From: Gammaproteobacteria bacterium
Lineage (GTDB): Bacteria > Pseudomonadota > Gammaproteobacteria > Steroidobacterales > GCA-2729495
Assembly (NCBI GenBank): GCA_051008895.1
Contig: JBPCXI010000225.1
Coordinates: forward strand, 1-20,225
DNA: 20,225 nucleotides
Reading direction: 5' to 3'
Part shown: piece after piece, positions 1-16,123 of the stretch
How positions within the stretch are numbered: position 1 is the stretch's first letter
Layout: each line of letters opens with the position of its first letter
Translations under genes and position numbers: made by a program
Notes under the pieces: model-generated
The model's database searches: none
What the model saw: the letters and a program-made list of their open reading frames with translations, nothing else
What the model was told of the DNA's origin: nothing

Positions 1-1002
1 CAAATTCTTGCGCAAGCGCTGGCCGACGGTGGCGCGGCGATCGACGCCGGCGACGCGCCGGTCGCGGTGCGAAACTTCGAGCTGGCGCTCGCGGTCGATG
101 CGGTAAACGCGGAAGCGCGCGCGGGGCTCGAGCGCGCGGGCCGGCTCGACGAGGTGCTGGAACTCATGCGTGTGGCAACGGACACGGAGTCGGCCGGCGA
201 ACTGGCCGCCGCCGCGGCACTGTATGAGCAGGCGTTGGCCATCGATCAGGCATGGACGCCGGCGCGCGAGGGTTTGTCGCGAACGCGCGCGGGCGTCGCG
301 CGCCTGGGCTATGAAACGCGGATGGCGGCAGGATTCGCCGCTCTGGCGGGCGAGGAATACGATCGTGCCCGTCAGGAGTTTGCCGCCGCGCTGCGCATTC
401 GGCCCGGCAACGCCGATGCGCAGGCCGCGATCCGCCAGGTCGATGAGGAACTGCGAATGGCGGACGTCATTCGCCTGCAGGCGCGCGCGCGGATCGCGGA
501 GGCGGGAGAGGATTGGGCAACTGCGGTTGCACGTTACGAGGAGATACTGGCCAAGGATTCGGCGGTGACCTCGGCTCGAAAGAACCTCGAACGCGCCAAG
601 GCGCGCCGGCAACTCGGCGAACTTCTGGATCTCGCGATCTCGAAGGCTGACGAATTCAATGACGACCGCATCGCGCGTGAGGCGCGCGCGGTGCTCGAGC
701 GCGGCGCGGCGGTCAACGATTCCGGCCCGGTACTTGAGGATCAGACCGAACGGTTGCGGGAATTGCTGCGTGTCGCGGCGATACCGGTGCCGGTAGTTTT
801 CCAGTCTGACAATCAGACCGAGGTAGTAATATACAAAGTCGGTAGCCTCGGCATGTTTCAGTCCCGCACGCTCGACCTGAAGCCGGGCCGTTACGTTGCG
901 GTCGGCAGTCGCGAAGGCTATCGCGACGTGCGGCGGAGTTTTCAGGTGATGCCGCAGGGAACCGATGCACCGATCGTAATGAGCTGCGAGGAGCCGATTT
1001 GA
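1..1002 (+). CDS. TPR-like (tetratricopeptide-like) repeat protein, 5' partial. The reading frame is open back to position 1.
   Basis: The ORF at 67..1002 is in frame with no stop back to nt 1. The protein has repeated Ala/Leu-rich helical hairpins typical of TPR-like repeats (AxxAL..YEQAL..D..). Its stop overlaps the TTG start of the next gene (gaTTTGAg), so the two are translationally coupled. Confidence 0.55.
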   Translation, partial: QILAQALADGGAAIDAGDAPVAVRNFELALAVDAVNAEARAGLERAGRLDEVLELMRVATDTESAGELAAAAALYEQALAIDQAWTPAREGLSRTRAGVARLGYETRMAAGFAALAGEEYDRARQEFAAALRIRPGNADAQAAIRQVDEELRMADVIRLQARARIAEAGEDWATAVARYEEILAKDSAVTSARKNLERAKARRQLGELLDLAISKADEFNDDRIAREARAVLERGAAVNDSGPVLEDQTERLRELLRVAAIPVPVVFQSDNQTEVVIYKVGSLGMFQSRTLDLKPGRYVAVGSREGYRDVRRSFQVMPQGTDAPIVMSCEEPI

Positions 1003-3425
1003 GTCGCAACATCATCGTCGTCGATTCGAATGGCGAGCGTCCCGTACCGGCCGAAAAACTCCCGCTGAGCATTGGCAGTCATGTAACCGCCGACGTCAGG
1101 GTTCCCGGCCCGGTTACCGACGGCAATCGCGCGCTTATCGATCTGCTGGACGACCGCCCGTTCCTGCAAACAGCAGGAAAGGAGGGCGTGGAGGTCAACG
1201 GCGAGGCTTTGACGCGGAATCGCTGGCTCGAGGCCGGTGACGTAATAACGATTGCCGGCGTTAGCATCAGCTGCGAGTTGACTCCGGACAATGCACGCCT
1301 TGTCGTCGATTCGACGGCGCTGGAATACCCGACGTTGCCGCCGGAGATCGTGACCGGCGCGATCGAGCAGCCCGAGCCGATTGCACCGGTCCGGCCGACG
1401 TCGCCGCCGCAGCTGCGCGAGCCGCAAAGCGGCGGCAGCCAGCGCCTCAGATACATCGGGATGGGTGCGCTTGGCCTGCTGCTCGCGGTTGCGGCCTATC
1501 TGTTTACCGCTCAGGCAGTGCTGATCGAAGTCGATCCGCCCGGCGCGGAAATACGCGTTGTCGGCGGCCTGCTGTCGCCGAAGGTCGGCGGCCGTTATCT
1601 CCTGCATCGGGATACGTACCGCATCCTCATGACGGCCGACGGTTATCACCCGCTGCGCGAAGAAATAGAAATCGACGATTCGCCGAACCAGTCATTCGAA
1701 TTCTCGTTGCGCAAGTTGCCCGGCAGGCTGGCGATATCGACGGTGCCCGTCGTGCCCGCGCGATTGTCTATCGACGGTGAGGAAGTTGGGGAACTGCCCG
1801 GCGGCGAATTCATCGCGGAGCCCGGTGAGCACGAATTGACCATTGCCGCGGAGCGCTTCCTGCCGCTGGCCACTACGGTCGAGGTCGAGGGCCGCGACGT
1901 TTTGCAGCCGATCGAGCTGCAGCTCGAGCCCGGCTGGGCAGACGTGACCGTCAAGACGACGCCCGGCGACGCGGAGATATTCGTCGACGACGAGTCCGTC
2001 GGCCGGACGCCGGCGACCGTTGAAATAATGGCCGGCAACCGGACGCTCGTCATTCGCAAGGACGGCTATAAATCCGTGACGCGCGAACTCGACGTCGAGC
2101 CCGGCGTCGAGCAGGCTCTGACCGATGTGGAGCTGGCCGAGGCGGACGGGCTGCTGACGGTGATCAGCTCGCCGGTCGGCGCGGCGGTCAGCGTCGACGG
2201 CCGGTACCGGGGAACGACGCCGGTCGAAGTTGAACTCGCCCCGGGCCGTCGTTACAAAGTCATCGCATCCAAAGCGGGATTCGGGACCATCAGCCGCAAC
2301 GTAACGATGGAGTCGCGTAGCGGCCGGACGATTCGCATCGCTCTCGAGGCGCGGATCGGCATCCTGCGCGTGAGCGCCGAACCACCAGACGCTGAGCTGA
2401 TCGTCGACGGTGAATCTCGCGGCGTCGCCAACCAGGAGTTGTCGTTGCCGGCGCGACCGCACCGGATCGAGATTCGCAAAGCGGGTTACGAAACGTATAG
2501 CACCGAAATCAGCCCGCAGCCGGGGTTGCCGGAGAGTATCGAGGTGCGCTTGTTGACGCCGAAGGAAGCCGTGCTGGCCGCGACACCGAGCACGCTGCAA
2601 ACAGGCGACGGCACCAGCATGGTTCTGGTGCGTCCGGGCGGAGAGTTCGAAATGGGCGCGCCGCGCCGGGAGCAGGGTCGCAGGCCCAACGAAGCGACGC
2701 ATCGTGTGAGTCTGACGCGGCCGTTCTATATCGCGAAGACTGAGGTGACCAACTCGCAGTTTCAGGCATTCAAGCCGAAGCATACGTCCGGCGCGGAGAA
2801 GTACCGTCAGCTCGCGACCGGCAATCATCCGGCCGTGATGCTGAGTTGGGAAGAGGCCACCGGCTACTGCAACTGGCTGAGTTCCAAGGATGGCTTGCCT
2901 CCCGCCTATGTATTCGAGAACGGTGCGATCACCCTCGCCACGCCGCCGACCATCGGTTACCGGCTGCCGACTGAGGCGGAATGGGCGTGGGCCGCGCGGT
3001 TCAGCGGCGGCGGCGGGCAGCGCAAGTATCCGTGGGGTGACAAGATGCCACCCACCGAAGACGCCGGGAATTTCGCCGACAAGTCGGCACGATCCGTACT
3101 GCCGAACGTGCTGGTCAACTACAGCGACAGATTCCCGATAACGGCGCCGGTCGGCAGCTTCCGGCCTAGCCCGATTGGCCTGTACGACCTCGGCGGCAAC
3201 GTGGCCGAGTGGGTCAACGATCGCTATTCGGTGTACACGCAGTCGAAAGGCGTCGAAGTCGATCCGCTCGGACCCGACAAAGGGCAGTATCATGTTATCC
3301 GCGGCTCCGGATGGAGGCACTCGAGCATTAGTGAACTGCGTTACGCTTATCGTGATTTTGGCAATCGCGGCCGCCTCGACGTCGGCTTCAGGATCGCGCG
3401 CTATGCAGAAGCGGCCGCGGAGTAG
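999..3425 (+). CDS. Membrane protein with an N-terminal FHA-like domain, one TM helix, about 5-6 PEGA domains and a C-terminal FGE-sulfatase (SUMF1/formylglycine-generating-enzyme-like) domain.
   Basis: TTG start with a GAGGAG Shine-Dalgarno 5-6 nt upstream. N-terminus: SIGSHVTADVRV...NRALIDL...VEVNGEAL fits an FHA pattern. Hydrophobic stretch YIGMGALGLLLAVAAYLF is a TM helix. Repeated PEGA-type modules follow, e.g. VKTTPGDAEIFVDDESVGRTPATVEI...RKDGYKS. The C-terminal 260 aa carry FGE-sulfatase family motifs (YRLPTEAEWAWAAR, GNVAEWVND, IRGSGWRH, GFRIAR). Confidence 0.8.
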   Translation: MSRNIIVVDSNGERPVPAEKLPLSIGSHVTADVRVPGPVTDGNRALIDLLDDRPFLQTAGKEGVEVNGEALTRNRWLEAGDVITIAGVSISCELTPDNARLVVDSTALEYPTLPPEIVTGAIEQPEPIAPVRPTSPPQLREPQSGGSQRLRYIGMGALGLLLAVAAYLFTAQAVLIEVDPPGAEIRVVGGLLSPKVGGRYLLHRDTYRILMTADGYHPLREEIEIDDSPNQSFEFSLRKLPGRLAISTVPVVPARLSIDGEEVGELPGGEFIAEPGEHELTIAAERFLPLATTVEVEGRDVLQPIELQLEPGWADVTVKTTPGDAEIFVDDESVGRTPATVEIMAGNRTLVIRKDGYKSVTRELDVEPGVEQALTDVELAEADGLLTVISSPVGAAVSVDGRYRGTTPVEVELAPGRRYKVIASKAGFGTISRNVTMESRSGRTIRIALEARIGILRVSAEPPDAELIVDGESRGVANQELSLPARPHRIEIRKAGYETYSTEISPQPGLPESIEVRLLTPKEAVLAATPSTLQTGDGTSMVLVRPGGEFEMGAPRREQGRRPNEATHRVSLTRPFYIAKTEVTNSQFQAFKPKHTSGAEKYRQLATGNHPAVMLSWEEATGYCNWLSSKDGLPPAYVFENGAITLATPPTIGYRLPTEAEWAWAARFSGGGGQRKYPWGDKMPPTEDAGNFADKSARSVLPNVLVNYSDRFPITAPVGSFRPSPIGLYDLGGNVAEWVNDRYSVYTQSKGVEVDPLGPDKGQYHVIRGSGWRHSSISELRYAYRDFGNRGRLDVGFRIARYAEAAAE

Positions 3426-3428
3426 GCG

Positions 3429-3710
3429 ATGGCGAGATATCTGAGTCTCGTATTTCTGCTGCTGGCGTGCCTTGCCGCGGTGGCGATTGCGCAGCAGTCC
3501 GGCGATGCGGAGACCGGCGCGGAACAGGAGGCCGGCGAGGATGCCGGGACTTCGCCGACCACGGTGATCGACGAACTGACGCAGGCGGAAATCGATGCCG
3601 AGCTGGCGAAGGCCGAGAAGGTCCTGGAGGATCCGGACGACGTGAAGGAATATATTGAAGACAAGCCGCTGCCGGCTGATTTGCCGCTGGCGATTCCGTC
3701 GGATTTTTGA
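3429..3710 (+). CDS. Small secreted, highly acidic protein (93 aa) with an N-terminal signal peptide.
   Basis: GGAG Shine-Dalgarno 6 nt upstream of the ATG. N-terminus MARYLSLVFLLLACLAAVAIA-QQ is a signal peptide with an AxA cleavage motif. The mature part is extremely Asp/Glu-rich. It sits 3 nt after the upstream stop and 17 nt before the next gene. Confidence 0.55.
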   Translation: MARYLSLVFLLLACLAAVAIAQQSGDAETGAEQEAGEDAGTSPTTVIDELTQAEIDAELAKAEKVLEDPDDVKEYIEDKPLPADLPLAIPSDF

Positions 3711-3727
3711 ATTGAGACCTACCGCAT

Positions 3728-4525
3728 ATGAAGAGTAATTTTTCCACCGAATTCGTCTTCCAGGCGTTCTCGCTGATCATTTCGATCATCGTCGTACACG
3801 CGTTTTATGTCGGCGCCGTGCGACCGAACGCGGCCGCCGTGCTCGAGGAGGAGGCCATTCTGATCGCGGAAGATCCTGACTACGTGCCCGAACGCTCGGT
3901 GTTCGTGATCGTCAAGGACTTCGAGCAGGAGGCTTGTTTCGTATTGATGTTCTGGGCGCTCGGCATCATGGGTTACAAGGCGTGGTCCGCGAAACAGGAG
4001 CGCGATCTGCTGGACCTCGACCTCGTCCCGATCGCCGACGGCGTGCGGGTATTGCCCGATGACAGCCGGGAGTATTCCCGGCAGCTGCAGGCGCTGCCGG
4101 AAACGCAGCGGCGCTTGCTGCTGCCGCGGGCGTTGCTGGCAGCGCTGCAACGCTTCGGCGCAACGCGTAACGTGCAGGACGTATCGTCGTCGACCAATAC
4201 GATGGTCAACATGGAAGCCGAACGCCTGGAGTCGGAACTGTCGATGATTCGTTATATCGCATGGGCGATTCCGTCGATCGGGTTCATCGGCACCGTGCGC
4301 GGCATCGGTGCGGCACTCGGTCTCGCGCATCGCGCAGTCGACGGCGATATCAGCGGCGTGACCCAGAGTCTGGGCACGGCGTTCAATTCCACCTTCATCG
4401 CGCTGTTGATCAGCATCTTCCTGATGTTTCTCGTGCATCAGCTGCAGCTACTGCAGGAGAGGCTGATTTTCGACGCGGAAGCGTATGTCGATCAGAACCT
4501 GATCCGGCACATGCAGTCTGACTAG
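3728..4525 (+). CDS. MotA/TolQ/ExbB-family proton (ion) channel subunit with four predicted TM helices.
   Basis: Four hydrophobic helices with a roughly 80-aa cytoplasmic loop between TM2 and TM3, which is MotA-like topology. The C-terminal helices carry the family signature (IPSIGFIGTVRGIGAALG and LGTAFNSTFIALLISIF, including the Pro in TM3). Confidence 0.7.
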   Translation: MKSNFSTEFVFQAFSLIISIIVVHAFYVGAVRPNAAAVLEEEAILIAEDPDYVPERSVFVIVKDFEQEACFVLMFWALGIMGYKAWSAKQERDLLDLDLVPIADGVRVLPDDSREYSRQLQALPETQRRLLLPRALLAALQRFGATRNVQDVSSSTNTMVNMEAERLESELSMIRYIAWAIPSIGFIGTVRGIGAALGLAHRAVDGDISGVTQSLGTAFNSTFIALLISIFLMFLVHQLQLLQERLIFDAEAYVDQNLIRHMQSD

Positions 4526-4546
4526 CCGGCAGCTGCGGCGTTTCCA

Positions 4547-5935
4547 ATGGCATTGTTTGCGATCGATCTGAACGACGCGGCAATTACCGTGGTTGGCCCG
4601 GACGGGATCGCAATGGCCGAGCCGGGGTACGCGCCTGGGTATGCGGCGACCGTCGACGGGCGATTGCTGTTCGGCATGGACGCATGGAAGGAATCCCGAT
4701 TACACCCGCGGAGCACAGCGAACGGATTCTGGAGCGACTTCTCGGAGGATCCGCTGGCACGCGAGTTTGCCGGTTGCTCAAGCTCGGCGGACCTCGCGCA
4801 CGTTCATCTCGAGGCGCTGCTCGCCGGATTACCGTCCCGACCTGCGGCGGCGCTGATCGTCGTGCCGCCGAACTGGACTACGCGGCAGCTCGGCCTGCTG
4901 CTCGGCATTGCGGAGGACATCGCGTTGCCGATACGCGGTCTCGTCGACCCGGCCGTCGCGGCGACGCGCGGCGAGTACGCCGGGCACCGATTGTTGCATA
5001 TCGACAGCGGCCTGCAGTCATCGACGATCACGCGCCTCGATCAGCACGGCCGCGTGTCGCTCGGCGAGCGGCAGGTCGTCGAGCGGGTTGGCATTATGCA
5101 GCTCGAGCGCGCATGCGTTACGTTTATCGCCGGACGTTTTCTGCAGGCGACTCGTTTCGATCCGGCGCACGATGCGCGCAGCGAACAATATCTGTACGAC
5201 AATCTGTATGCGTGGATTCGCGACGTGGACCGGCAAGAGGAGGTCGGTCTGACGATCGAATTCGGTGCGAACGAGTTCGGCACGACGATCCGCCGCGCAG
5301 ACCTCGCGGCGCGCGTCGCTGACGCATTCGAGCCGGTGGCGCGCCAGATACGCAGCTCGGTCAGCGCGGGTGAGCAAGTCGCAATTCAGGTGTCCGCGCG
5401 CCTTGCGGAGTTTCCCGGCGTGGTCGAGGCGCTGGCGAAATTGCCGCAGGCCAGCGTTTTCGTGCTGGATCAGGCAGCCGGGGCGATCGGAGCGCTGCAG
5501 CGCGAACAATGTTTCATGCCGACCGGCGGCGGGGTTGGGCTGACGACGACGTTACCGTGGGATCGAACGGTCGCTGTGGCGCAGGATTCGAGCGTACCGG
5601 CAGACTTCGAGCCCGAGATCGTCGAGCCGACCCACGTATTTTACGGCGGTAATGTTTACCGACTCACGAGCGCCCCGTTCAACATCGGGGTTGAACTTGC
5701 GGCCGGCGAATACGGTCTACAATTGGGTGCATCGCTTGGCGGCGTATCACGCAGGCACTGCAGCATTCGACGCGGTCAGAACGGCGTTGAACTCGCGGAC
5801 CATAGCCGCTTCGGCACGAAGCTGAACGGCCACGCGATCGACGGCGCCGTCGTACTGCAGGCGGGCGACATTGTTACGATCGGCAGTCCGCCGGTGCAAT
5901 TGCGCCTCGTGCGCGAAATCGGTAGCCGGGACTAG
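4547..5935 (+). CDS. Cytoplasmic protein with a C-terminal FHA domain and an uncharacterised N-terminal region of about 330 aa.
   Basis: The C-terminus (GVSRRHCSIRR...GVELADHSRFGTKLNGHAIDG...GDIVTIG) is a textbook FHA core. No TM segment is present. The N-terminus (MALFAIDLNDAAITVV) weakly resembles the first phosphate-binding motif of Hsp70/actin-fold ATPases. Confidence 0.7.
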   Translation: MALFAIDLNDAAITVVGPDGIAMAEPGYAPGYAATVDGRLLFGMDAWKESRLHPRSTANGFWSDFSEDPLAREFAGCSSSADLAHVHLEALLAGLPSRPAAALIVVPPNWTTRQLGLLLGIAEDIALPIRGLVDPAVAATRGEYAGHRLLHIDSGLQSSTITRLDQHGRVSLGERQVVERVGIMQLERACVTFIAGRFLQATRFDPAHDARSEQYLYDNLYAWIRDVDRQEEVGLTIEFGANEFGTTIRRADLAARVADAFEPVARQIRSSVSAGEQVAIQVSARLAEFPGVVEALAKLPQASVFVLDQAAGAIGALQREQCFMPTGGGVGLTTTLPWDRTVAVAQDSSVPADFEPEIVEPTHVFYGGNVYRLTSAPFNIGVELAAGEYGLQLGASLGGVSRRHCSIRRGQNGVELADHSRFGTKLNGHAIDGAVVLQAGDIVTIGSPPVQLRLVREIGSRD

Positions 5936-5939
5936 GCGC

Positions 5940-7037
5940 ATGGCGCGAAAGAGATTTAACGTATTCAACCTGTCTTTCCTCGACGTGATGGCGTGTGGCC
6001 TCGGCGCGATTGTGCTGTTCTACATGATCATCAACGCGCAGGTGTCGCGGCGTGCCGATCAGGCCAATGAAACGTTGCTGGCCGAGTCGACGATGCTTGA
6101 AGAAGAGGTGCTGGACGGGCGCAAGGATCTGATACGCGTGCGCACCACACTCGAGGCCAAGGAAGAGGAGCGGCTCGCAAGGGATACCGAGGCGGATCGT
6201 TTACGCGAGGAGCTCGAGCGACTGCTGGCCGAGCTGGCCGCGTCCGAGAAAAGCACGGTCGCCCAGACCGAGAGTATCGAACAACTGGAGGCTGACATCG
6301 AGCGCCTCGAAGACGCCAAGCGGCGCCTGTCGGCCGAGGCCGCGGACCGCGCGCCGGAATCCGGCCGACGGGTCCGTACGTTTGTCGGCGACGGCAACCG
6401 TCAGTACCTGACGGGCATGAGGATGGGCGGCAGCCGCGTACTGTTCCTCGTCGACGCATCGACGAGCATGCTCGGCCGTTCCTACGTAAACGTCGTGCGC
6501 TTCCGTAATATGCAGCCGTCGCGCAAACGCCTTGCGCCGAAATGGCAGCAGGTCGTAAACAGCGTCGACTGGCTCACCACTCAGCTTTCGCCGGGCATCA
6601 AATTTCAGCTCTACGTCTTCAACGAGCAAGCCAATAGTGTGGTCGACGGTAGCGACGGCAAGTGGATTGACGTGAAAGACGGGAGCGAGCTCAGTGAAGC
6701 AGTTGATGCACTGCGACTCGTCACGCCGGAGAAGGGTACTAGCCTGATCAATGCGTTCTCTCGCATCAGCGAACTCGACCCGCTGCCCGACAACATCTAT
6801 TTGTTGACCGACGGGCTGCCGACGCAGGGCAAGGTGCCGCCGAATGAGGTCGTGCGGGTCAAGGAGAGTCGTCGCATCGACTATTTCGAGAAGGCCGTGC
6901 GGCAATTGCCGCGGAAGGTGCCGGTCAATATTTTGTTGTATCCAATGGTTGGCGATCCCGCCGCGGCCGGGTTGTTCTGGCAGCTGGCGATTGCGAGTAA
7001 TGGTTCGCTGCTGACGCCGTCGCGTGACTGGCCGTAG
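5940..7037 (+). CDS. ExbD/TolR/MotB-like single-pass membrane protein with a long coiled coil and a C-terminal von Willebrand factor A (VWA, MIDAS) domain.
   Basis: The start is ATG 5940, which is preferred over the longer 5871 ORF. The N-terminus MARKRFNVFNLSFLDVMACGLGAIVLFYMI matches the ExbD/TolR TM helix with its conserved Asp (compare ExbD PFIDVMLVLL). The Glu/Leu/Arg-rich segment after the TM helix is a heptad-like coiled coil. The VWA domain has a DASTS MIDAS motif (LFLVDASTSM) and a downstream TDG motif (IYLLTDGLPT). Confidence 0.7.
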   Translation: MARKRFNVFNLSFLDVMACGLGAIVLFYMIINAQVSRRADQANETLLAESTMLEEEVLDGRKDLIRVRTTLEAKEEERLARDTEADRLREELERLLAELAASEKSTVAQTESIEQLEADIERLEDAKRRLSAEAADRAPESGRRVRTFVGDGNRQYLTGMRMGGSRVLFLVDASTSMLGRSYVNVVRFRNMQPSRKRLAPKWQQVVNSVDWLTTQLSPGIKFQLYVFNEQANSVVDGSDGKWIDVKDGSELSEAVDALRLVTPEKGTSLINAFSRISELDPLPDNIYLLTDGLPTQGKVPPNEVVRVKESRRIDYFEKAVRQLPRKVPVNILLYPMVGDPAAAGLFWQLAIASNGSLLTPSRDWP

Positions 7038-7061
7038 ACGCCGAACGATGGTCGCATTGCT

Positions 7062-8057
7062 ATGAAGAAGAAAAATCGCGAAACAGAGACCTTCAGCCTG
7101 TCGTTTCTCGACGCGGTGACCTGCGCATTCGGGGCCGTCATTCTGCTGCTGGTGTTGACGAAAATCTATGAGCCGCAGACGATCGAGCGCAGCAAGCAGG
7201 AGCTCGCCGGGCTGATCGCCGCGTTGCAGAAGGAGTTGTTCGATCTGCGCGGCGAGACGGCCGTGCTCAATCGCGAGATGGTTACCGTCGACGATCAGCT
7301 GGCGAAGTCGCGCCAGGCGGTCGCGACGCTGCGCGGCGACGTGTCCGATGTTCGCGGCCAGTTCGAGGCGTCCCAGGACAGCGCCGACGTCGATAGCGAG
7401 CAGCGCGGCGAACTGGTTGCTGCGCGGCAAATGTTGACCGAGGAAATGAAACGCCTGCTCGCGAATTATCAACCCGCTGACAACGAAACGACCGTTGGCG
7501 GCATTCCGGTCGACAGTGAGTACATCATTTTCGTCATCGATACGTCCGGCAGCATGTTCCAGGGCCCTTGGCGGTTGGTACTCAAGAAAATCGAGGAGAC
7601 GCTGTCGGTCTACCCGGAGGTCAAGGGCATTCAGGTGCTGAACGACGAAGGACGGTATATGTTCTCGTCGTACGCCGGCAAATGGATCCCCGACTCGCCG
7701 ACCGCGCGTCGGAATATCATCAGCCGCCTGGCCAACTGGAATCCGTACAGCGATTCGAGTCCGGTCGAGGGGATATCCGAGGCGATAAACACGTTCTACG
7801 AGCCGGGCAAACCGATCAGTATTTTCGTATTCGGGGATGACTTCCCGCGCGGGCAGGTCGAGGCGGTTGCCCGCTTCATCGACAGAGTCAACAAAACAAA
7901 CGCATCAGGCGATCGGCTGGTCCGCATTCACGGGGTTGGATTTCCGACACAGCTGGCGGGCGGGCGCACGCGCAATGCGCAGCAGTTTGCGAACCTGATG
8001 AGGACGCTGTGCGAGCGCAACGGCGGATCGTTCGTCGCACTGACGTATTTGAACTAG
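7062..8057 (+). CDS. Paralogous ExbD/TolR-like TM helix, coiled coil and VWA-domain protein.
   Basis: The N-terminus FSLSFLDAVTCAFGAVILLLVL has the same ExbD-type TM Asp motif. A coiled coil follows, then a VWA domain with a DxSxS MIDAS motif (IIFVIDTSGSM). The architecture is the same as the upstream gene. Confidence 0.7.
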   Translation: MKKKNRETETFSLSFLDAVTCAFGAVILLLVLTKIYEPQTIERSKQELAGLIAALQKELFDLRGETAVLNREMVTVDDQLAKSRQAVATLRGDVSDVRGQFEASQDSADVDSEQRGELVAARQMLTEEMKRLLANYQPADNETTVGGIPVDSEYIIFVIDTSGSMFQGPWRLVLKKIEETLSVYPEVKGIQVLNDEGRYMFSSYAGKWIPDSPTARRNIISRLANWNPYSDSSPVEGISEAINTFYEPGKPISIFVFGDDFPRGQVEAVARFIDRVNKTNASGDRLVRIHGVGFPTQLAGGRTRNAQQFANLMRTLCERNGGSFVALTYLN

Positions 8058-8087
8058 ACGGCGTCTGAATCGCGGAGAAATGCAGAG

Positions 8088-8432
8088 ATGGCCATGACCA
8101 AAGATTTACTCAATCGTCGTTGTGAGCCCTGCGAGGGTGGCGTGCCGCCGCTGGAGCCGGAAGCGGTGCAGGAGTTGCGCAAGGCCCTCGACGGCAACTG
8201 GCAGGTGACAGACGACGGCAAGTCGATCGTGCGGACGTTCGATTTCGCGGGCTATCATCGGACGATTTCTTTCGTCAACGCGCTCGCGTGGATTGCCGAG
8301 AGCGAAGGCCATCATCCCGACCTCGGGGTGCACTACGGCAAGGTTGAGGTGCTGTATACGACGCACGCGATCGGCGGGTTATCGGAAAACGACTTCATCT
8401 GCGCCGCGAAAATCGATCGGCTGCGGAACTAG
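8088..8432 (+). CDS. phhB: Pterin-4a-carbinolamine dehydratase (PCD/DCoH).
   Basis: The 114-aa protein carries the family signature around EGHHPDL. Its size is typical for bacterial PhhB. The start could be ATG 8088 or ATG 8094. Confidence 0.85.
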   Translation: MAMTKDLLNRRCEPCEGGVPPLEPEAVQELRKALDGNWQVTDDGKSIVRTFDFAGYHRTISFVNALAWIAESEGHHPDLGVHYGKVEVLYTTHAIGGLSENDFICAAKIDRLRN

Positions 8433-8470
8433 AGCATTGCCTTTAGAACATAGCCCCTGGAACATCGCGC

Positions 8471-10273
8471 CTAGAACATAGCTGACGGACCGACTTCGCC
8501 GTCGTCGTCGTCGTCCTCACGACGATTCTTGATGAAATCGCCGGTGATCATCTTGTCGTATGCCATGCCGGGCCCGACCATTGGAAAGACCATGGCGTCG
8601 GGATCGATGATCACCTCGAGAAACGCAGGTCCGTCGAACTCGATGAATTCCTTGACGACCTTTTCCACGTCGTTCTTTTGCTCCAGCCGCACCGCGAAAT
8701 CAAAACCGTCAGCCTGCGCAGCCTTGATGAAGTCTTTGCGATGCAGCGACTTGTCGGTCGCCGAAAAACGGCCTTTGTAATACAGCTTCTGCCACTGTCT
8801 GACCATCCCGTCGCCGTAGTTGTTGAGCACGACGACCTTGACGGGCAGGTCGTAGGTGGTGACCGTCTCGAGTTCGCCGAGATTCATCCGGATGCTCGCA
8901 TCGCCGTCGATATCGATGACCAGCCGGTCCGGACGCGCAAACTGCGCGCCAATCGCCGCTGGCAGGCCGAATCCCATCGTACCCATGCTGCCCGATGTCA
9001 GCCACAGTCGCGGTTCGCGAAAATCGAACCCCTGGGCTGCCCACATCTGGTGCTGGCCGACGCCGGTCGTGATGATTGCGTCGCCCTGCGTATGCTTGTT
9101 CAGTTCCTCAATGACATAGTCGGGCTGGATAAGCGCGCTGTCACGGTCGTAGTTTTGCGCGTACGTCGATTTCAGCGCCGCGATTTCCTCGTGCCAGATC
9201 GGCAGCCGAGTCTTGATATCGTGCCGGTCCCCATACGCGATCAGCGCCTGCAGATCGCGATTCAGGATGCCGACGTGATACCAGTCGACATTCTTGACCT
9301 TGCCGATCTCCGACGGGTCGACGTCGAAATGCGCGAGTCGCTTCGCGCTCGGCGCAAACTTCTCGGGCACTCCCGCGACGCGATCGTCGAAACGCGCGCC
9401 GACAGCGATCAGGAAATCGCAGTCGTCGACCGCGTAGTTCGCAAAAGCAGCGCCGTGCATGCCGAGCATGCGTAACGACAGGTCGCTGGTCGTATCCTGC
9501 GCGCCAATGCCCATCAGCGTCGTCGTAATCGGTATCCCGAAGCGATCCGCAAACGTTCTCAGCGAAGCCGAGGAATCGCTGTTGACGACGCCGCCCCCCG
9601 CATAAATCAGCGGGCGCTCCGAACGTGCCAGCATGTCGAAGAATACCTTTGCCGTGCCGGCGGTCAGAACGTTTTCTTCGACCGCGCGCATGCGCTGGCG
9701 ATAGCCGACGATCGGTAGCAAGCCGGTGCCCTCGAATTCGCCGACCCAGTTCTGCACGTCTTTCGGCACGTCTACGACGACCGGTCCGGGTCTGCCGGTG
9801 CGGGCAATTTCGAACGCGGTACGCACGGTGGCCTCGAGTTTGTGCGGGTCGGTCACGAGGAACACATGTTTCGCGACCGCCGAGCCCATAACCGCTGAAA
9901 TCGGGGCCTCCTGGAATGCGTCCGTGCCGATCGCTGCCGTCGGGACCTGGCCGCAGATCACGACGATCGGTATCGAGTCGGCCATGCAGTCGCGGACCGG
10001 CGTAACGGTATTGGTCGCGCCGGGACCCGACGTCACCATGACGACGCCGACCTCGCCGCTCGCGCGAGCGTATCCGGACGCCATGAAGCCGGCCCCCTGC
10101 TCGTTGGCCGGCACGATCAACGGCATTGGCACGCCGCCGTTGTCGTCGCGGTTGTCGTCGTTGTAACGAAAGACTGCGTCGTAGGTCGGGAGGATCGCGC
10201 CGCCACTGTAGCCGAAAATCGCGTCGACGCCTTCGTCGGCGAGTACCTGTACGATCATTTCCGCGCCGGTCAT
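8471..10273 (-). CDS. ilvI: Acetolactate synthase (acetohydroxy-acid synthase) large catalytic subunit. It is ThDP-dependent and carries an unusual C-terminal poly-Asp tail.
   Basis: ALS-specific motifs are present: FGYSGGAILPTYDAV, GPGATN, RMLGMHG, GVGQHQMWAAQ and SGSMGTMGFGLPAAIGA. The start is chosen at MTGAEMIVQ (10273). The longer ORF allows ATG 10330 or 10501. The C-terminus ...NRREDDDDDGEVGPSAMF is atypical for this family. Confidence 0.85.
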   Translation of the reverse strand: MTGAEMIVQVLADEGVDAIFGYSGGAILPTYDAVFRYNDDNRDDNGGVPMPLIVPANEQGAGFMASGYARASGEVGVVMVTSGPGATNTVTPVRDCMADSIPIVVICGQVPTAAIGTDAFQEAPISAVMGSAVAKHVFLVTDPHKLEATVRTAFEIARTGRPGPVVVDVPKDVQNWVGEFEGTGLLPIVGYRQRMRAVEENVLTAGTAKVFFDMLARSERPLIYAGGGVVNSDSSASLRTFADRFGIPITTTLMGIGAQDTTSDLSLRMLGMHGAAFANYAVDDCDFLIAVGARFDDRVAGVPEKFAPSAKRLAHFDVDPSEIGKVKNVDWYHVGILNRDLQALIAYGDRHDIKTRLPIWHEEIAALKSTYAQNYDRDSALIQPDYVIEELNKHTQGDAIITTGVGQHQMWAAQGFDFREPRLWLTSGSMGTMGFGLPAAIGAQFARPDRLVIDIDGDASIRMNLGELETVTTYDLPVKVVVLNNYGDGMVRQWQKLYYKGRFSATDKSLHRKDFIKAAQADGFDFAVRLEQKNDVEKVVKEFIEFDGPAFLEVIIDPDAMVFPMVGPGMAYDKMITGDFIKNRREDDDDDGEVGPSAMF

Positions 10274-10492
10274 GCGCTTGCCGGCACGCGGGTGTGCGGT
10301 CGTTTCGATTGTCGGTGACGGACTTGCCATAACGTTGGAAGGCGCTTTGTGCGGGTCTATGAGGATCGAGTTGTTGTGTTTTCGCGAGTTTCGAACAAAT
10401 GAGGGTCCATTGCAATAGCAAACATTCTGAGCGAGTATTGCCAATCTTCTAAATCTTAAGGCTTTTTTCGGCACCTCCGGCGAAAACCAGCG

Positions 10493-10993
10493 ATGCGACA
10501 CGTGATTTCCATACTGCTGCAGAACGAAGCCGGCGCGCTCGCGAGGGTCGCGTCGTTGTTCTCGACGCGCGGCTACAACATCGAATCGCTCAGCGTCGCG
10601 CCGACCGAGGACCCGCAGGTCTCGCGATTGACGCTGGTTTCGATCGGGTCCGATCAGGTCATTTCACAGATTACGCAGCAGCTGTTCAAACTCGTCGATG
10701 TCGTAAATATTGCCGATATGACACTTGGCGATCATATAGAGCGCGAGCTGCTGCTGCTCAAGCTGCGCGTAGACACGGAGCACGGCGATAAGGTCCGGGA
10801 CATGGCGCGCGAGCTTAAGGCCCGTGTGCTCGACGACGCTTTGCGGAACTACACCGTGGAAGTCACCGGCAGCAGCGGCCAGCTCGATGAATTCATCGAT
10901 CGCGTCGGCAACTGCGGCGATATCCTGACGGTCGTGCGCTCGGGGCCGCTGTCGCTCGCGCGGGGCCAGCAGGTGTTGAGCGCGACAATCTGA
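10493..10993 (+). CDS. ilvH: Acetolactate synthase small (regulatory, ACT-domain) subunit.
   Basis: 166 aa. The N-terminus MRHVISILLQNEAGALARVASLFSTRGYNIESLSVAPTEDPQVSRLT closely matches the IlvH/IlvN ACT-domain signature. Confidence 0.85.
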   Translation: MRHVISILLQNEAGALARVASLFSTRGYNIESLSVAPTEDPQVSRLTLVSIGSDQVISQITQQLFKLVDVVNIADMTLGDHIERELLLLKLRVDTEHGDKVRDMARELKARVLDDALRNYTVEVTGSSGQLDEFIDRVGNCGDILTVVRSGPLSLARGQQVLSATI

Positions 10994-11010
10994 CCTGCGC
11001 TGCGGCAGCC

Positions 11011-12159
11011 ATGAACTCTGTTAGCGATCACGAGATCACGCGACCCGCGTTGGCCGACGCCGGCCGCGTGGTCATCAAGATAGGCTCGTCGCTGCTGGTC
11101 GATGCGGAGACGGGCCGTCTGAACCGTCGCTGGCTCGAATCCCTCGCCGACGAGGTTGTGCGCCTGCGCGAACGGGGCCAGCAGGTACTGATCGTGTCGT
11201 CCGGCGCGATCGCGCTGGGGCGTCGCTACCTCGGCCTGTCGCCGGCGCAATCGCGACTCGAGGATCACCAGGCCGCCGCCGCCGCCGGCCAGGTGCTGCT
11301 CGCGCATGCGTACCAGGACCTGCTGGACGATCGCGGCGTTCGCATCGCGCAGATTCTGCTGACGCTGGACGATACCGAGGATCGCCGTCGGTATCTGAAC
11401 GCGCGCAGTACGCTGGCGACGCTGCTGAAGCTCGGCGTCGTGCCGGTGATTAACGAGAACGATACCGTCGCGACGCAGGAGATTCGCTACGGCGACAACG
11501 ATCGTCTCGGCGCCCGCGTCGCGGAAATGGTCAGTGCGGACTGCCTCGTGCTGCTGTCCGACGTCGACGGGCTGTATAGCAGCGACCCGAGTTCGGATAC
11601 GGACGCCGAGCTGATCGCCGAGGTGCGTGAGATTACCGCCGATATCGAGGCGCGGGCCGGTGCGTCCAGTACGCCGTTCGGATCCGGCGGCATGGTCACC
11701 AAGCTGGCCGCGGCCCGCATCTGCATGGCCGCAGGCTGTGCGACGCTAATTGCGAACGGCCATCGGCTCGAGCCGATGCGGGCGATCGAAGCTGGCGCGC
11801 CGTGCACCTGGTTCATCCCGCGCAAGTCCCCGCGCGCGGCGCGCAAGCAATGGATAGCGGGCAGCCTGACGTCGCGTGGCAAGCTCATGATCGACGCGGG
11901 TGCGGAACGTGCACTCGCGAGTGGCAGTAGCCTGCTGCCGGTCGGCGTCGTCGGCGTCGAAGGCGATTTCGAGCGTGGCGATGCGATTTCCGTCGTCAGC
12001 AGTGATGGCCGCGATATTGCGCGCGGTCTTGCCGCGTATTCGAGTGCGGATGCTCGCACTATCCAGGGCCGACGCAGCGAGGAGATCGATTCGCTGCTTG
12101 GTTACGGCGGGCGAGATGAGATAATACATCGCGACGATCTGGTCCTGATGGATGGATGA
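11011..12159 (+). CDS. proB: Glutamate 5-kinase with a C-terminal PUA domain.
   Basis: [12 protein letters not shown]...[12 protein letters not shown]...VINEND are amino-acid-kinase family motifs. The C-terminal PUA-like segment begins [13 protein letters not shown]. The gene starts 17 nt after ilvH. Confidence 0.9.
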
Positions 12160-13447
12160 CATGAGCGTGACGAGCGAGCAAATGAATACGGACACCGCCG
12201 CAGCGATGGAGCGCATCGGGCGGCAGGCCCGTGCCGCCGCGAGTGAGCTCGCGAAGGCCGGGGCGGGCGAGAAGGTTGATGCGTTGCACGCGGCGGCCGC
12301 GACAATTCGTGAGCGTGCCGCCGCGATCTTGCAGGCGAACGCGCTCGACATGGAGACGGCCCGCGCGCGCAGTATCCCGGCGGCGATGCTCGACCGCTTG
12401 CTATTGAACGAAGAACGCGTCGAGGCGATGGCTGTCGGCGTGGAGCAGGTCGCCGCGCTCGACGATCCGATTGGCACGACCATTGCGGACTGGGACCGGC
12501 CGAACGGTCTGCGTATCCAGCGCGTGCGTGTGCCGCTCGGCGTTATCGGCATCATTGACGAGAGTCGGCCGAACTTGACGGCCGACGCCGGCGCGCTGTG
12601 CCTGAAGTCCGGGAACGCGGTGATCCTGCGCGGCGGCTCGGAGAGTTTTAATTCGAGCACGGCGATTCAGGCGTGTTTCGAGCATGCGCTGACGGAGACG
12701 GGACTGCCGGCGGCCGCGATTCAGATTGTGCCGACCCGGAGTCGCGACGCGGTGGGTATGATGCTGGCCGGGCTGGACGGCTGTGTCGACGTCATCGTTC
12801 CGCGCGGCGGCAAGAACCTGATCGCACGCGTGCAGCAGGATGCGCGCGTCCCGGTCATCGGCCATCTCGAGGGCCTCTGTCACGTCTACGTGCATCCTTC
12901 CGCCAATGTGAAAATGGCGACGGACATCGTGCTGAACGCAAAGATGCGTCGCACCGGTATTTGCGGTGCGGCGGAGTCGCTGTTGATCGATCGCGACGCG
13001 CTCGGTACGCACCTGCCCGCGATTGTTGATGCACTGGCGGCCGCTGGTTGCGAGCTGCGCGGCGACGAAGATGCGCGCGCGATCGATGCACGCATCGTTC
13101 CCGCAACGGACGAGGACTGGACGACGGAATACCTCGACGCGATCCTGTCCATTCGCACGATCGCCGGCATCGATGCGGCGATCGCGCACATCGAGACCCA
13201 CGGCTCCGGGCACACGGATGCGATCGTTGCCGAGGATCGCAATGTCGTCGAGCGATTCTTCAGTCAGCTCGACAGCGCAATACTGATGCACAACGCATCG
13301 ACGCAGTTCGCCGACGGCGGCGAATTCGGCATGGGCGCGGAGATCGGTATCGCAACGGGCCGGATCCACGCGCGTGGCCCGGTCGGCGCGGAGCAGCTGA
13401 CGAGCTTCAAATACGTCGTCCGCGGTAGCGGTCAGACCCGCCCGTAA
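12152..13447 (+). CDS. proA: Gamma-glutamyl phosphate reductase (glutamate-5-semialdehyde dehydrogenase).
   Basis: ALDH-superfamily ProA with conserved full-length architecture. It overlaps the proB stop by 8 nt. An alternative start is ATG 12161, immediately after the proB stop. Confidence 0.9.
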
Positions 13448-15049
13448 TTGGTGGCCGATACCAATCCAAGCCACGATTTTGACCTGATTGTCATCGGTGG
13501 CGGCGTCAACGGCGCCGGCATCGCCCGTGACGCGGCCCTGCGCGGCCTGCGCGTCTGTCTGCTGGAGCAGGCGGATCTGTGCCACGGCACGAGCCGCTGG
13601 TCCAGTCGCCTGATCCACGGCGGTTTGCGGTATCTGGAGCACTTCGAGTTGTCGCTCGTGTACGAATCGCTGCACGAGAGGGAGGCACTGCTCAAGACCG
13701 CGCCGCACCTGGTCCGCTCGCTCGAATTGCTCATCCCGATTTACCGCGGTGGGCGCCGGGGCAGGTTTGTCATCGCGTGCGGCATGTGGCTCTACGACCT
13801 GCTGTCGATCGGCAAGTCGGTGCCGCGGCACCGGATGCTCGATGCCGAGGAGGCGCTGGTCGCGATGCCGTTGCTCAATCCTGCGGCACTGACAGGTGCG
13901 GCCTGCTACTACGACGCGCAGGTTGTATTCGCGGAGCGCCTGATCGTCGAGAACGCGCTCGCCGCGCGCGACGCCGGCGCATCAATCCGCACCTACAGCC
14001 GCGTCGACCGAATACTGATCGAGGACCGCCGCGTGCGCGGCGTTCGCTACACGGACTTGCGTACCGATCGGCAACATGATGTCACCGCGACCGTGGTCGT
14101 CAACGCGGCCGGTCCGTGGGTCGATTCGGTTCTCGACAAGCTCGACGCCGACGTGCCCGACTTCATGGGCGGGACGAAGGGTACCCATATCGTCGTGCCG
14201 AAGTTTCCGGGCCACCCGCGGATTGCGGTTTACTCGGAGGCGGCGTCCGACGGGCGGCCCTTTTTCATCATCCCGTGGAACGGGATGTTGCTGATCGGGA
14301 CCACGGATATTCGCCACGAAGGTAGTCCGGCGGACGCGTCGGCGGATGCAGGCGAAATTCGTTACCTGCTCGATGAGACGAATCGCGTGTTTCCCGGCGC
14401 CAATCTCGACGAATCCAAGATTCACTATCACTATTGCGGCGTGCGACCGCTGCCGAAAAAGCCGAAGAAATCTACAGGCGCAATTACGCGCAAGCACATC
14501 ATCCGCCATCACCGGCGCGTCGCGAATGGCCTGTACTCCGTGATCGGGGGCAAGCTAACGACCTACCGCAATCTCGCCGAGATCGTGACGGATCGCGCCG
14601 TTCGCCGTATCGGCAGGCGCGCCGCCGCATGCGTGACGAAGAAGGCGCCGCTTCCCGGCGCAGCCGGCGATCACGGCGCGACCGTCGATGCACTCGACGC
14701 CTGCGATGCGATCGCGCCCGAGGCTCGCGCACACCTGCTGCAGGTATACGGCTCCCGCGCGACCGCGATAAAGAAACTGATTGATGAAAACCGGGAGCTC
14801 GGCGCACGCATCTGCCCGCACAGTCACGCGATTGCCGCCGAGGTTGTGTTCTGTTTCCGCGAAGAACTCGCGACAACAATAGCCGATGTCATGTTGCGCC
14901 GAACGATGATCGGTTTATCCGAGGACCTCGGCCGGGCCGCGCTGCCACGTGCAATCGAGGTCGCGAGAAAGTATCTCGGTTGGAGTCAGCAACGCGCCGA
15001 CGAAGAAGAGCGGCGATACCTGCGCGAGATTGATCGACTGACGCATTGA
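13448..15049 (+). CDS. glpD: FAD-dependent glycerol-3-phosphate dehydrogenase.
   Basis: The N-terminal FAD-binding motif DLIVIGGGVNGAGIARDAALRGL and the downstream motif SSRLIHGGLRYLE are hallmarks of GlpD/GlpA. It has a non-ATG start (TTG/GTG) directly after the proA stop. Confidence 0.8.
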   Translation: MVADTNPSHDFDLIVIGGGVNGAGIARDAALRGLRVCLLEQADLCHGTSRWSSRLIHGGLRYLEHFELSLVYESLHEREALLKTAPHLVRSLELLIPIYRGGRRGRFVIACGMWLYDLLSIGKSVPRHRMLDAEEALVAMPLLNPAALTGAACYYDAQVVFAERLIVENALAARDAGASIRTYSRVDRILIEDRRVRGVRYTDLRTDRQHDVTATVVVNAAGPWVDSVLDKLDADVPDFMGGTKGTHIVVPKFPGHPRIAVYSEAASDGRPFFIIPWNGMLLIGTTDIRHEGSPADASADAGEIRYLLDETNRVFPGANLDESKIHYHYCGVRPLPKKPKKSTGAITRKHIIRHHRRVANGLYSVIGGKLTTYRNLAEIVTDRAVRRIGRRAAACVTKKAPLPGAAGDHGATVDALDACDAIAPEARAHLLQVYGSRATAIKKLIDENRELGARICPHSHAIAAEVVFCFREELATTIADVMLRRTMIGLSEDLGRAALPRAIEVARKYLGWSQQRADEEERRYLREIDRLTH

Positions 15050-15533: not shown

Positions 15534-15610
15534 GCCGGCCTGGCTTTAATGGCAAGAAGCGGCTGCCTGGTAAGCAGCAGAAAGAGGTTCGATTCCTCTG
15601 ACCGGCACCA
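15534..15610 (+). tRNA. tRNA-Thr (anticodon GGT).
   Basis: Cloverleaf read by eye. Acceptor GCCGGCC/GACCGGC has one C-A mismatch. D-stem GCTT/AAGC. Anticodon stem GCTGC/GCAGC with loop CTGGTAA. T-arm AGAGG-TTCGATT-CCTCT. CCA is encoded. Confidence 0.75.
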
Positions 15611-15615
15611 CACAT

Positions 15616-15690
15616 GCACTGGTAGCTCAGACGGCAGAGCGCCTGGTTGAAGCCCAGGAAACGGAGTCTCGAAACCTCCCCGGTGCGCCA
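15616..15690 (+). tRNA. tRNA-Phe (anticodon GAA), atypical.
   Basis: Acceptor GCACTGG/CCGGTGC includes a G-U pair. D-arm GCTC-AGACGGCA-GAGC. Anticodon stem CCTGG/CCAGG with loop TTGAAGC, so position 37 is G. T-arm GGAGT-CTCGAAA-CCTCC has U53-C61 and C54, which is non-canonical. CCA is encoded. Confidence 0.55.
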
Positions 15691-15696
15691 GATTAT

Positions 15697-15771
15697 TCCG
15701 GTTTAGCTCAACGGTAGAGCGGCCGCCTGTTAAGCGGCCAGGTGCAGGTTCGAATCCCGCAGCCGGAGCCA
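15697..15771 (+). tRNA. tRNA-Asn (anticodon GTT).
   Basis: Acceptor TCCGGTT/AGCCGGA. D-arm GCTC-AACGGTA-GAGC. Anticodon stem GCCGC/GCGGC with loop CTGTTAA. T-arm GCAGG-TTCGAAT-CCCGC has one A-C mismatch. CCA is encoded. Confidence 0.75.
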
Positions 15772-15777
15772 ATCATC

Positions 15778-15845
15778 GGGGGTGTTTCTGAGAAAGCGAA
15801 CGCCTTGCAAGCGCGTGCAGGCCGGTTTGATTCCGGCCGCCTCCA
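15778..15845 (+). pseudogene. Degenerate tRNA-like element. The acceptor and T-arm are intact, but the D and anticodon arms are aberrant.
   Basis: Acceptor GGGGGTG/CGCCTCC pairs, with two G-U. T-arm GCCGG-TTTGATT-CCGGC is perfect. The intervening 34 nt cannot be folded into canonical D and anticodon arms. The best case is CGC-CTTGCAA-GCG, a UGC (Ala)-like loop on a 3-bp stem. No CCA is encoded. Confidence 0.35.
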
Positions 15846-16024: not shown

Positions 16025-16030
16025 AACATC

Positions 16031-16107: not shown

Positions 16108-16123
16108 ATTTTCAATAGTCACT

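Follow-up and report, generated by a model that had tools for sequence, protein, structure and literature searches.

Background

The 5:2 ion-driven motors, which include MotAB, ExbBD, TolQR, GldLM, AglRQS and ZorAB, drive processes as different as motility, import, envelope integrity, secretion and defence. With every further set of partners, this engine has been found in another use. Here we describe a further set, encoded in a 20,225-nt stretch of DNA from a metagenome-assembled genome of a gammaproteobacterium (the whole of contig JBPCXI010000225.1, assembly GCA_051008895.1), called the window below. Positions 1-8057 of its + strand hold a probable operon of seven genes, g1-g7, for a kinase, a MotA/TolQ/ExbB-family channel subunit, two paralogous membrane-anchored proteins with VWA domains, two proteins with FHA domains and a small secreted protein. 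On balance we lean towards the view that these products form an ion-driven 5:2 motor of the MotAB/ExbBD/TolQR superfamily with a g6/g7 VWA heterodimer, which would be controlled from both sides of the membrane and by way of threonine phosphorylation.

The closest described system was noted in silico in 2025, in [quoted passage not shown] (Mol Biol Evol, PMC12204202, Fig. 4c-d). It consists of transmembrane (TM)-tethered "trans-pore-helix" (TPH) vWA proteins, mostly in heterologous pairs, whose genes lie beside tolQ-like genes and are not accompanied by tolR or exbD. These proteins have no SHLS motif and keep a conserved proton-binding Asp in the trans-pore helix; AF3 models of 5:2 complexes put the helices inside a TolQ-like pentamer, with the pair of Asp residues at the Thr ring. 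The search was seeded on Idiomarina loihiensis, and the proteins were found mainly in Proteobacteria and in some PVC-group bacteria. The authors neither named the system nor gave it a function, and proposed force transduction to the outer membrane. The word "kinase" does not occur in that paper and "FHA" occurs only as FhaC; Hsp70-like proteins, PEGA/FGE proteins, the secreted protein and the lipoproteins treated below are not mentioned. Full-text searches for the full combination of domains returned this paper as the only relevant one, for the motor core alone.

Another described pathway, TagQRST-PpkA-Fha1, switches on type VI secretion where the envelope is damaged, and one of its components, TagR, belongs to COG1262 (PMC13584744, PMC10482370). 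We return to it together with the kinase and FHA genes of the cluster.

Results and discussion

Gene content and conservation of the cluster

An initial annotation, made from the letters of the window alone, had described seven genes that run in the same direction, with one 4-nt overlap and otherwise only 3-24 nt between them; both coordinates and spacing proved correct. The TTG start of g2 at 999 overlaps the stop of g1 by 4 nt, and the gaps that follow measure 3, 17, 21, 4 and 24 nt. The genes are:

g1, from before 1 to 1002 (+): 3' part of a gene for a bitopic Hanks-type Ser/Thr kinase, coding for a TPR-like region in the periplasm and a C-terminal beta domain that resembles PEGA
g2, 999-3425 (+): FHA-fold domain, TM helix, four PEGA domains and FGE-sulfatase-fold domain
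g3, 3429-3710 (+): small acidic secreted protein with signal peptide
g4, 3728-4525 (+): MotA/TolQ/ExbB-family channel subunit
g5, 4547-5935 (+): Hsp70 nucleotide-binding-domain (NBD)-like domain and C-terminal FHA domain
g6, 5940-7037 (+): basic N-terminal tail, TM helix with Asp15, long helix and VWA domain
g7, 7062-8057 (+): paralog of g6 with Asp17 in the TM helix, long helix and VWA domain

The start of g6 used by homologs is an ATG located 23 codons inside the listed open reading frame (ORF). No sigma-70-like promoter was found within the g1-g7 region and terminator-like hairpins occur there at chance frequency; together with the tight spacing, this fits a single transcription unit. The NCBI annotation is generic, with names such as VWA domain-containing, MotA/TolQ/ExbB family and FHA domain-containing protein.

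Position 1 of the window falls inside the kinase gene, as comparison with the contig of a relative (L086) reveals. Positions 4061-15038 of that contig are 95% identical to window 1-10991, and window 10997-15039 is matched at 93.5% identity. Its kinase gene (2696-5062) encodes 788 aa, with a Pkinase domain, then one TM helix, then a periplasmic region of TPR-like and PEGA-like character, and g1 corresponds to the C-terminal 333 aa. The product of g1, initially annotated as a TPR protein, does give weak TPR matches in Pfam when the fragment is taken alone, but is actually the periplasmic C-terminus of a Pkinase-TM-TPR protein cut by the contig end. Two lipoprotein genes, u1 and u2, head the cluster before the kinase gene and outside the window (575-2606 in the related locus L001, 987-2677 in L086), with a divergent MFS gene upstream of them. 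The same kinase architecture and upstream genes were found in a complete genome of 3.57 Mb, so that a Ser/Thr kinase, anticipated upstream of position 1, is present there as well as in L086. The window carries six and a half genes, the distal part of a nine-gene cluster made up of the two lipoprotein genes, the kinase gene and g2-g7. No ExbD, TolR or MotB gene belongs to it, as judged by Pfam on the window proteins and by inspection of the cluster in relatives.

The family of g6 comprises 1323 representatives at 50% clustering (E<=1e-3), and at least 585 species genomes carry a g6 relative. Co-occurrence was counted in the 80 best loci, from the closest species genomes, with loci having enough flank as the denominator:

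g7 after g6: 74/76 loci
g5 between g4 and g6: 69/73 loci
g4 upstream: 69/70 loci
g2: 56/58 loci
kinase homolog: 53/55 loci
u2: 48/52 loci
u1: 35/49 loci

The same gene order recurs in these 80 best species genomes and the arrangement is far beyond chance; the system is real and widespread, and co-occurrence of the genes across genomes, on which the initial annotation had made its proposal depend, is clear. The locus labels include Woeseiaceae, Halieaceae, Pseudohongiella, Steroidobacteraceae, Lysobacterales, Desulfobacterales, Myxococcales, Kiritimatiellia and Vicinamibacteria. Three carriers are cultured: Congregibacter variabilis, Kineobactrum sediminis and Pseudohalioglobus sediminis. In relatives at 95% and at ~62% identity the cluster has the same housekeeping genes as neighbours (pterin dehydratase, ilvIH, proBA).

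The channel subunit g4

The product of g4 matches MotA_ExbB (PF01618) with E 1e-13 and 51.6 bits, against a cut-off of 22.9. Two of its threonines, T189 (nt 4292-4294) and T222 (nt 4391-4393), are invariant in 38 homologs and, in a profile alignment of these homologs, align with the pore threonines T145 and T178 of Escherichia coli TolQ (8odt). The family assigned in the initial annotation was right; of the four TM helices described there, two strong and two weaker hydrophobic segments can be seen. The protein is presumed to form a pentamer.

Complexes of the MotAB superfamily that act outside flagellar motility include ZorAB, and Zorya uses a 5:2 MotAB-like complex. The cluster might likewise serve anti-phage defence of the Zorya type, in which the complex would sense a perturbation of the envelope and trigger a cytoplasmic response; weak PADLOC matches of g4 to ZorA (E 0.0014-0.023) point in this direction. 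PADLOC returned nothing significant for any of the seven proteins, however, and the long ZorA tail, the peptidoglycan-binding domain of ZorB, the effectors ZorC/D/E and any nuclease, helicase or other effector are missing from the cluster. The constant housekeeping context and a gene order that is uniform across whole bacterial families, not patchy, also speak against defence, which we regard as highly improbable.

The paired stalk proteins g6 and g7

That g6 and g7 encode paralogs is evident from direct comparison (BLASTP 5e-10) and from a full-length alignment of the two family profiles (hhalign 99.9%, E 2e-35). Each protein has a single TM helix behind a basic tail, and an Asp two to three residues into this helix. 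In g6 it is Asp15 (nt 5982-5984), invariant in 49 representatives down to 29% identity; in g7 it is Asp17 (nt 7110-7112), invariant in 40 homologs. The residue is invariant also in a joint alignment of 38 g6/g7 N-termini and in three distant variants of the cluster. The joint consensus of the TM region, F-S-L-S-F-L-D-x-I-x-C-G-F-G-A, contains neither an S-H-L-S motif nor a conserved His.

Identification of the C-terminal domain required a fold search, because the sequence and profile matches are marginal. Pfam matches of g6 and g7 to VWA stay below the cut-offs, although most g6 homologs carry precomputed VWA_2 matches. Profiles of the two families compared with PDB sequences gave mostly coiled-coil noise, with marginal VWA matches (ITIH4 0.0042, VWA2 0.018, integrin alpha-M 0.32). 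In the AlphaFold (AF2) model of g6, one helix spans residues 5-135 and is followed by a domain whose structural matches are VWA only: ITIH1 (6e-8), CLCA1, calcium-channel alpha2-delta, BatB, ArnB, the LapA vWFA domain and PilB pilin. As g7 aligns over its full length with the g6 family, the same fold is assigned to it. The metal-ion-dependent adhesion site (MIDAS) is conserved as D172-x-S174-x-S176 and D291 in g6 and is invariant as D160-T-S162-G-S164 in g7. The description of two paralogous TM(Asp)-coiled coil-VWA proteins in the initial annotation is correct, and so are its profile calls for FHA, PEGA, FGE and MotA_ExbB; its VWA call falls short of the Pfam cut-offs and was upheld by the fold search.

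The helix between membrane and VWA domain is poorly conserved in sequence, yet its length is kept. Between the TM Asp and the Ser of the MIDAS lie 136-163 residues in the g6 family (median 156) and 143-147 residues in 40 sequences of the g7 family. A periplasmic helix of ~100 residues would give a stalk of roughly 15 nm.

Taken together, g4, g6 and g7 correspond to the TPH-vWA/TolQ-like motors in all their defining features: an Asp-bearing helix, no SHLS, a C-terminal vWA domain, a heteropair, a Thr ring and no tolR or exbD. The correspondence is one of described features. What differs is the g5 gene between the tolQ-like and the first vWA gene, and the addition of the kinase, FHA, Hsp70-like and PEGA/FGE proteins, of g3 and of the lipoproteins. 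The motor core is therefore already on record in silico, and the judgement of the initial annotation that the system was undescribed holds only for these partners, which do not appear in the published account. What appears to be new here is the nine-gene definition, the kinase/FHA/Hsp70-like control layer, the C-terminal peptide of g3, the conserved length of the stalk and the existence of kinase-less variants.

With ExbB-ExbD-TonB and TolQ-TolR-TolA the core shares a PF01618 subunit with two pore threonines, a single-pass partner with an Asp near the cytoplasmic end of its helix, and a long periplasmic reach. Unlike them, it has neither the periplasmic domain of ExbD/TolR nor a third subunit equivalent to TonB or TolA, and the inner heteropair itself bears the stalk and the ligand-binding head. 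TolA, TonB, TolB, Pal, CpoB and TonB-dependent transporters are absent from the window and from the full cluster of relatives. For lack of TolA, TonB, TolB, Pal and a transporter, identity with Tol-Pal or TonB is ruled out; the initial annotation had set these two systems and Zorya aside, and the missing component genes and the insignificant PADLOC matches bear this out. Type IX secretion offers another likeness, as GldLM/PorLM is an ion-driven motor with long periplasmic inner subunits and an FGE-sulfatase-fold protein, GldK/PorK, encoded alongside. Pfam and NCBIfam searches of the window proteins found no homologs of GldL, GldM or GldN, and GldK, the best NCBIfam match of the FGE domain of g2 (2.7e-29), reaches 102.7 bits against a cut-off of 350, so the GldLM/GldK identity was rejected. 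PvdO, EgtB and other FGE-fold families match that domain as well. All NCBIfam matches of g1-g7 (GldK, PvdO, TolQ, TagH) are sub-threshold and no gene can thus be called an ortholog of a member of a named system.

One special case of the motor we propose is that it energises a specific process at the outer membrane or cell surface, such as adhesion, gliding, display of surface proteins or uptake, with the VWA heads in the role of the C-terminal domains of TonB/TolA or of CglB, the adhesin of Agl-Glt. Force transduction to the outer membrane has been proposed for the TPH-vWA proteins (PMC12204202); VWA domains are typical modules of adhesion and ligand binding, and the fold of g6 resembles BatB, the LapA vWFA domain and PilB pilin. 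The cluster moreover encodes two lipoproteins and, in g3, a secreted protein whose C-terminal peptide is conserved. The conserved cluster nevertheless holds no gene for a TonB-dependent transporter, a Glt-type protein, a pilus or a secretion system, and we consider this particular version quite unlikely.

Kinase, FHA proteins and secreted partners

The full-length homolog of g1 has intact kinase motifs: the G-loop, VALK, HRDIKSSN and DFG. The protein encoded next, g2, combines domains of both sides of the membrane. One TM helix is predicted to separate its FHA domain, on the cytoplasmic side, from the PEGA and FGE domains on the outer side:

FHA-fold domain, ~nt 1068-1253 (+): cytoplasmic
TM helix, ~nt 1470-1526 (+): residues 158-176
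FGE-sulfatase-fold domain, nt 2613-3401 (+): periplasmic

Pfam detects FGE-sulfatase (5.5e-48) and four stretches of PEGA (6.3e-46). The FHA domain is missed when the whole protein is scanned, but the first 120 aa alone match PF00498 (3.3e-5, 24.7 bits against a cut-off of 20.7), and a profile of 24 orthologous N-termini matches solved FHA domains, for example that of Ki-67 (5e-7). A near-invariant T112-x-P-P motif follows right after this domain, and T112 is a candidate phospho-acceptor. Near the G-S-W motif of the FGE domain a Cys pair is missing, and C624 is the only conserved Cys. Because the pair is missing, we take the domain to be a non-catalytic, ligand-binding version of the formylglycine-generating enzyme.

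As annotated initially, g3 encodes a small acidic secreted protein, with a signal peptide and 21 D+E against 5 K+R. Phmmer does not detect g3 homologs owing to the low-complexity middle of the protein; a small ORF with a signal peptide nonetheless lies between g2 and g4 in nearly all loci, with the ending F/Y-x-P-S/T-E-x-I/V-x-x-D-x-x-x-x-F/L-P-x-D-I-COOH. In the window this conserved C-terminal peptide reads ...PLPADLPLAIPSDF-COOH. Of the two lipoproteins, u1 is acidic and of low complexity, contains much Gly, Ser and Pro, and ends in a helix that is conserved (...DDQVA.QIREAAMAE.DP.IREALW.EY..H.GIKK), and u2 is 411 aa long, with a Gly-rich hydrophobic stretch close to its C-terminus. Neither u1 nor u2 matched a Pfam family.

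The fifth gene was initially taken to encode a purely cytoplasmic FHA protein. Its FHA domain is confirmed (Pfam 4.8e-10), but a 340-aa Hsp70-NBD-like domain, to which Pfam gives no match, precedes it:

Hsp70-NBD-like (actin-fold) domain, residues 1-340, nt 4547-5566 (+): AF2 model and Foldseek
FHA domain, residues ~361-455, nt 5627-5911 (+): Pfam

The AF2 model of the Hsp70-NBD-like domain has a pLDDT of 91 and a pTM of 0.85, and its top Foldseek matches in PDB, at E values of 1e-15 to 3e-17, are all of the Hsp70 family, both NBD-only and full-length structures, with TM scores of 0.71 for Ssz1 (4gni) and 0.7 for the NBDs of Hsp70s. Residues S401, R402, H404, S420, R421, G423, T424 and N427 of the FHA domain, which form S-R-x-H and S-R-x-G-T-x-x-N, are invariant in 46/46 sequences, and the domain keeps most of the canonical set of phosphothreonine-binding residues.

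Associations of VWA, FHA and Hanks-type kinases are recurrent. Archaea have ArnA (FHA) and ArnB (VWA) with the kinases ArnC/D, bacteria have BatA-E (VWA/TPR), and both ArnB and BatB are among the matches of the g6 fold. In the proteins described here, VWA is a periplasmic domain, FHA and kinase are cytoplasmic ones, and since they lie on opposite sides of the membrane, a direct FHA-VWA contact mediated by phosphothreonine, as in ArnAB, is impossible. Bat operons differ in having a MoxR ATPase; it is missing here, and a Bat/MoxR operon was rejected as the identity of the cluster.

[quoted passage not shown] COG1262, the group of TagR, is the FGE/SUMF1 family, and a VWA domain is found in the periplasmic part of PpkA. 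Here, by contrast, VWA is found on the inner subunits of the motor and not on the kinase, and FGE is fused to FHA via a TM helix. This shared domain vocabulary (PMC13584744, PMC10482370), as well as the co-occurrence of the kinase, g2 and the lipoproteins with the motor genes, would suit a pure sensor: the TolQ-like/VWA complex and the PEGA/FGE protein would detect envelope damage or the state of the cell wall, and the sole output would be threonine-phosphorylation signalling to targets elsewhere in the cell, as in the Tag pathway. Core genes of T6SS, the ABC-like pair TagST and the phosphatase PppA are, however, absent from the cluster and from 10-kb flanks in L001, L086 and the window, as is any other obvious output gene. 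The invariant pore threonines and Asp and the length-conserved stalks argue for a working ion-coupled machine.

Distant variants of the cluster bear on the same question. In three of them (L082, L083 and L085, ~30% identity) the MotA_ExbB gene is still accompanied by genes for a g5-like protein, for both VWA proteins and for a PEGA or PEGA-FGE protein, and by a small ORF. One of the three retains the kinase. The other two (L082, 1132-14831; L083, 290-12941) encode in its place a TM protein that has no kinase domain and is homologous to the periplasmic part of the kinase; they also have two extra secreted proteins, one of 746-813 aa and one of 334-338 aa, neither of which belongs to a Pfam family. 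As the two kinase-less variants retain the motor together with the g5-like, the two VWA and the PEGA proteins, the kinase looks accessory, and we find it rather unlikely that the system is a sensor alone. From this comparison, the deep core consists of the motor, the Hsp70-like protein, the two VWA stalks and the PEGA proteins, and phosphorylation seems to have been elaborated as a further layer in the window's own clade.

Proposed mechanism

In the motor that we propose, a pentamer of g4 would form the channel, and a g6/g7 heterodimer in its pore would replace the dimer of ExbD, TolR or MotB, each partner contributing one protonatable Asp. Ion flow via the Asp and Thr sites would turn or pull the g6/g7 pair. 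Length-conserved stalks would place the MIDAS-bearing VWA heads near the cell wall or outer membrane, where a head might grip an acidic residue of a partner; candidates are the C-terminal ...P-x-D-I/F peptide of g3 and the two lipoproteins encoded upstream. A cue from the periplasm or the cell wall would be read by the ectodomains of the kinase (TPR and PEGA-like) and of g2 (four PEGA domains and a non-catalytic domain of FGE/C-type-lectin fold). Phosphorylation of threonine would follow, possibly at the T112-x-P-P site of g2, and would recruit g5 via its canonical FHA domain, whose Hsp70-like neighbour could then act on the cytoplasmic face of the motor.

The reading of g4, g6 and g7 as a motor rests on the MotA_ExbB family membership of g4, the invariant TolQ-type pore threonines, the invariant TM Asp, the lack of an ExbD, TolR or MotB gene and the almost constant adjacency of g6 and g7. 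It rests further on the VWA fold with its conserved MIDAS, on the conserved length of the stalk and on the same core, with the same conclusion, in PMC12204202. Control by phosphorylation is suggested by the intact catalytic motifs of the kinase, by the FHA motif of g5 in 46/46 sequences and by the position of g5 between g4 and g6. Persistence of the core, including a homolog of the kinase ectodomain, in relatives of ~30% identity also speaks for the proposal.

Several observations weigh against the proposal. At the level of the motor, neither g6 nor g7 has a Pfam match to ExbD, TolR, MotB or OmpA at E<=0.1, and a profile of their TM region compared with PDB finds no ExbD, TolR or MotB chain at E<=10. 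The term "ExbD-like" is thus to be understood as a functional analogy drawn from the position of the Asp, from the context and from the published model, and not as demonstrated sequence homology; of the ExbD/TolR-type helix in the initial annotation, the invariant and correctly placed Asp stands, and the Asp did prove conserved among homologs, but homology went undetected. At the level of control, the FHA domain of g2 is devoid of canonical phosphothreonine-binding residues, with no Arg after the conserved Gly and no SxxH, so that all the domains and the topology first described for g2 were found, but not the binding residues expected of its FHA domain. The FHA domain of g5 also lacks the Arg after the conserved Gly. 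The phosphate-1 motif of g5 is atypical, x-L-N-D-A instead of the D-x-G-T-T of Hsp70/actin-fold ATPases; in this region, N-D-A(A/G/S), D10 is invariant and N9 occurs in at least 90% of sequences. The Hsp70-like domain may accordingly be a pseudo-ATPase that does not hydrolyse ATP, or may bind something other than ATP. No phosphatase is encoded in the cluster, including the PP2C enzyme that had been suspected upstream of the window. Finally, the FHA motif of the g5-like protein is degenerate in all three distant variants, two of which have no kinase domain, and control by phosphorylation is for this reason not universal to the family. With three variants to compare, the evidence that loss of the motif goes with loss of the kinase is mixed: both kinase-less variants lost it, and so did the one that keeps the kinase.

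Our slight preference for the overall picture rests more on the 5:2 motor core than on the details of its control. A stronger claim can be put forward only tentatively, and we hold it for more doubtful than not: that this is the first 5:2 motor with an obligate heterodimeric rotor or plunger that bears its own stalk and MIDAS heads, gated by eukaryote-type threonine phosphorylation through an FHA-Hsp70-like adaptor docked on its cytoplasmic face. As for the initial annotation as a whole, its observation of the operon is confirmed, and its interpretation of the architecture is partly supported and largely right.

Other features of the window

A gene for pterin-4a-carbinolamine dehydratase (8088-8432, +) begins 30 nt past g7 and is probably co-transcribed with the operon here. 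It accompanies the cluster in 15/73 loci only and was rejected as a further member. On the opposite strand (8471-10501, -) lies the large subunit of acetolactate synthase, listed as an ORF of 676 aa from a GTG; its ortholog in close relatives has 600 aa, and the true start is probably ~76 codons further in.

At 15534-16935 (+), 12-13 tRNA genes are packed into 1.4 kb, namely Thr, one found by Rfam only (15616-15687), Asn, Asp, Glu, Pro, His, Lys, Val, Arg, Ile, Leu and a last one whose anticodon call is odd (16863-16935). The GC content of this array, 0.57, is below that of the rest of the window. Collinearity with L086 (93.5-95% identity) stops at window 15039/15040 (L086 19172), just before the array, and L086 has other genes past the breakpoint. 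The tRNA array and the adjoining genes for an SPFH protein (16946-18472, +) and a TPR-sulfotransferase (18517-19896, -) are thus located at a synteny breakpoint, and this segment may be an insertion.

Conclusions

The cluster described here swaps the usual ExbD/TolR/MotB subunit for two VWA-headed stalk proteins and encodes its own control layer of kinase, FHA and Hsp70-like proteins. It presents a concrete, testable case of post-translational gating of a 5:2 motor, and its cultured carriers make point mutants feasible. If the stronger and more doubtful claim above is true, the system would be a phosphorylation-switched mechanical link from the inner membrane to the cell wall or outer membrane, with the C-terminal peptide of g3 or the lipoproteins as the ligand that is pulled. 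It would then represent a not-yet-recognised envelope function in marine and sediment Gammaproteobacteria and in several other phyla.

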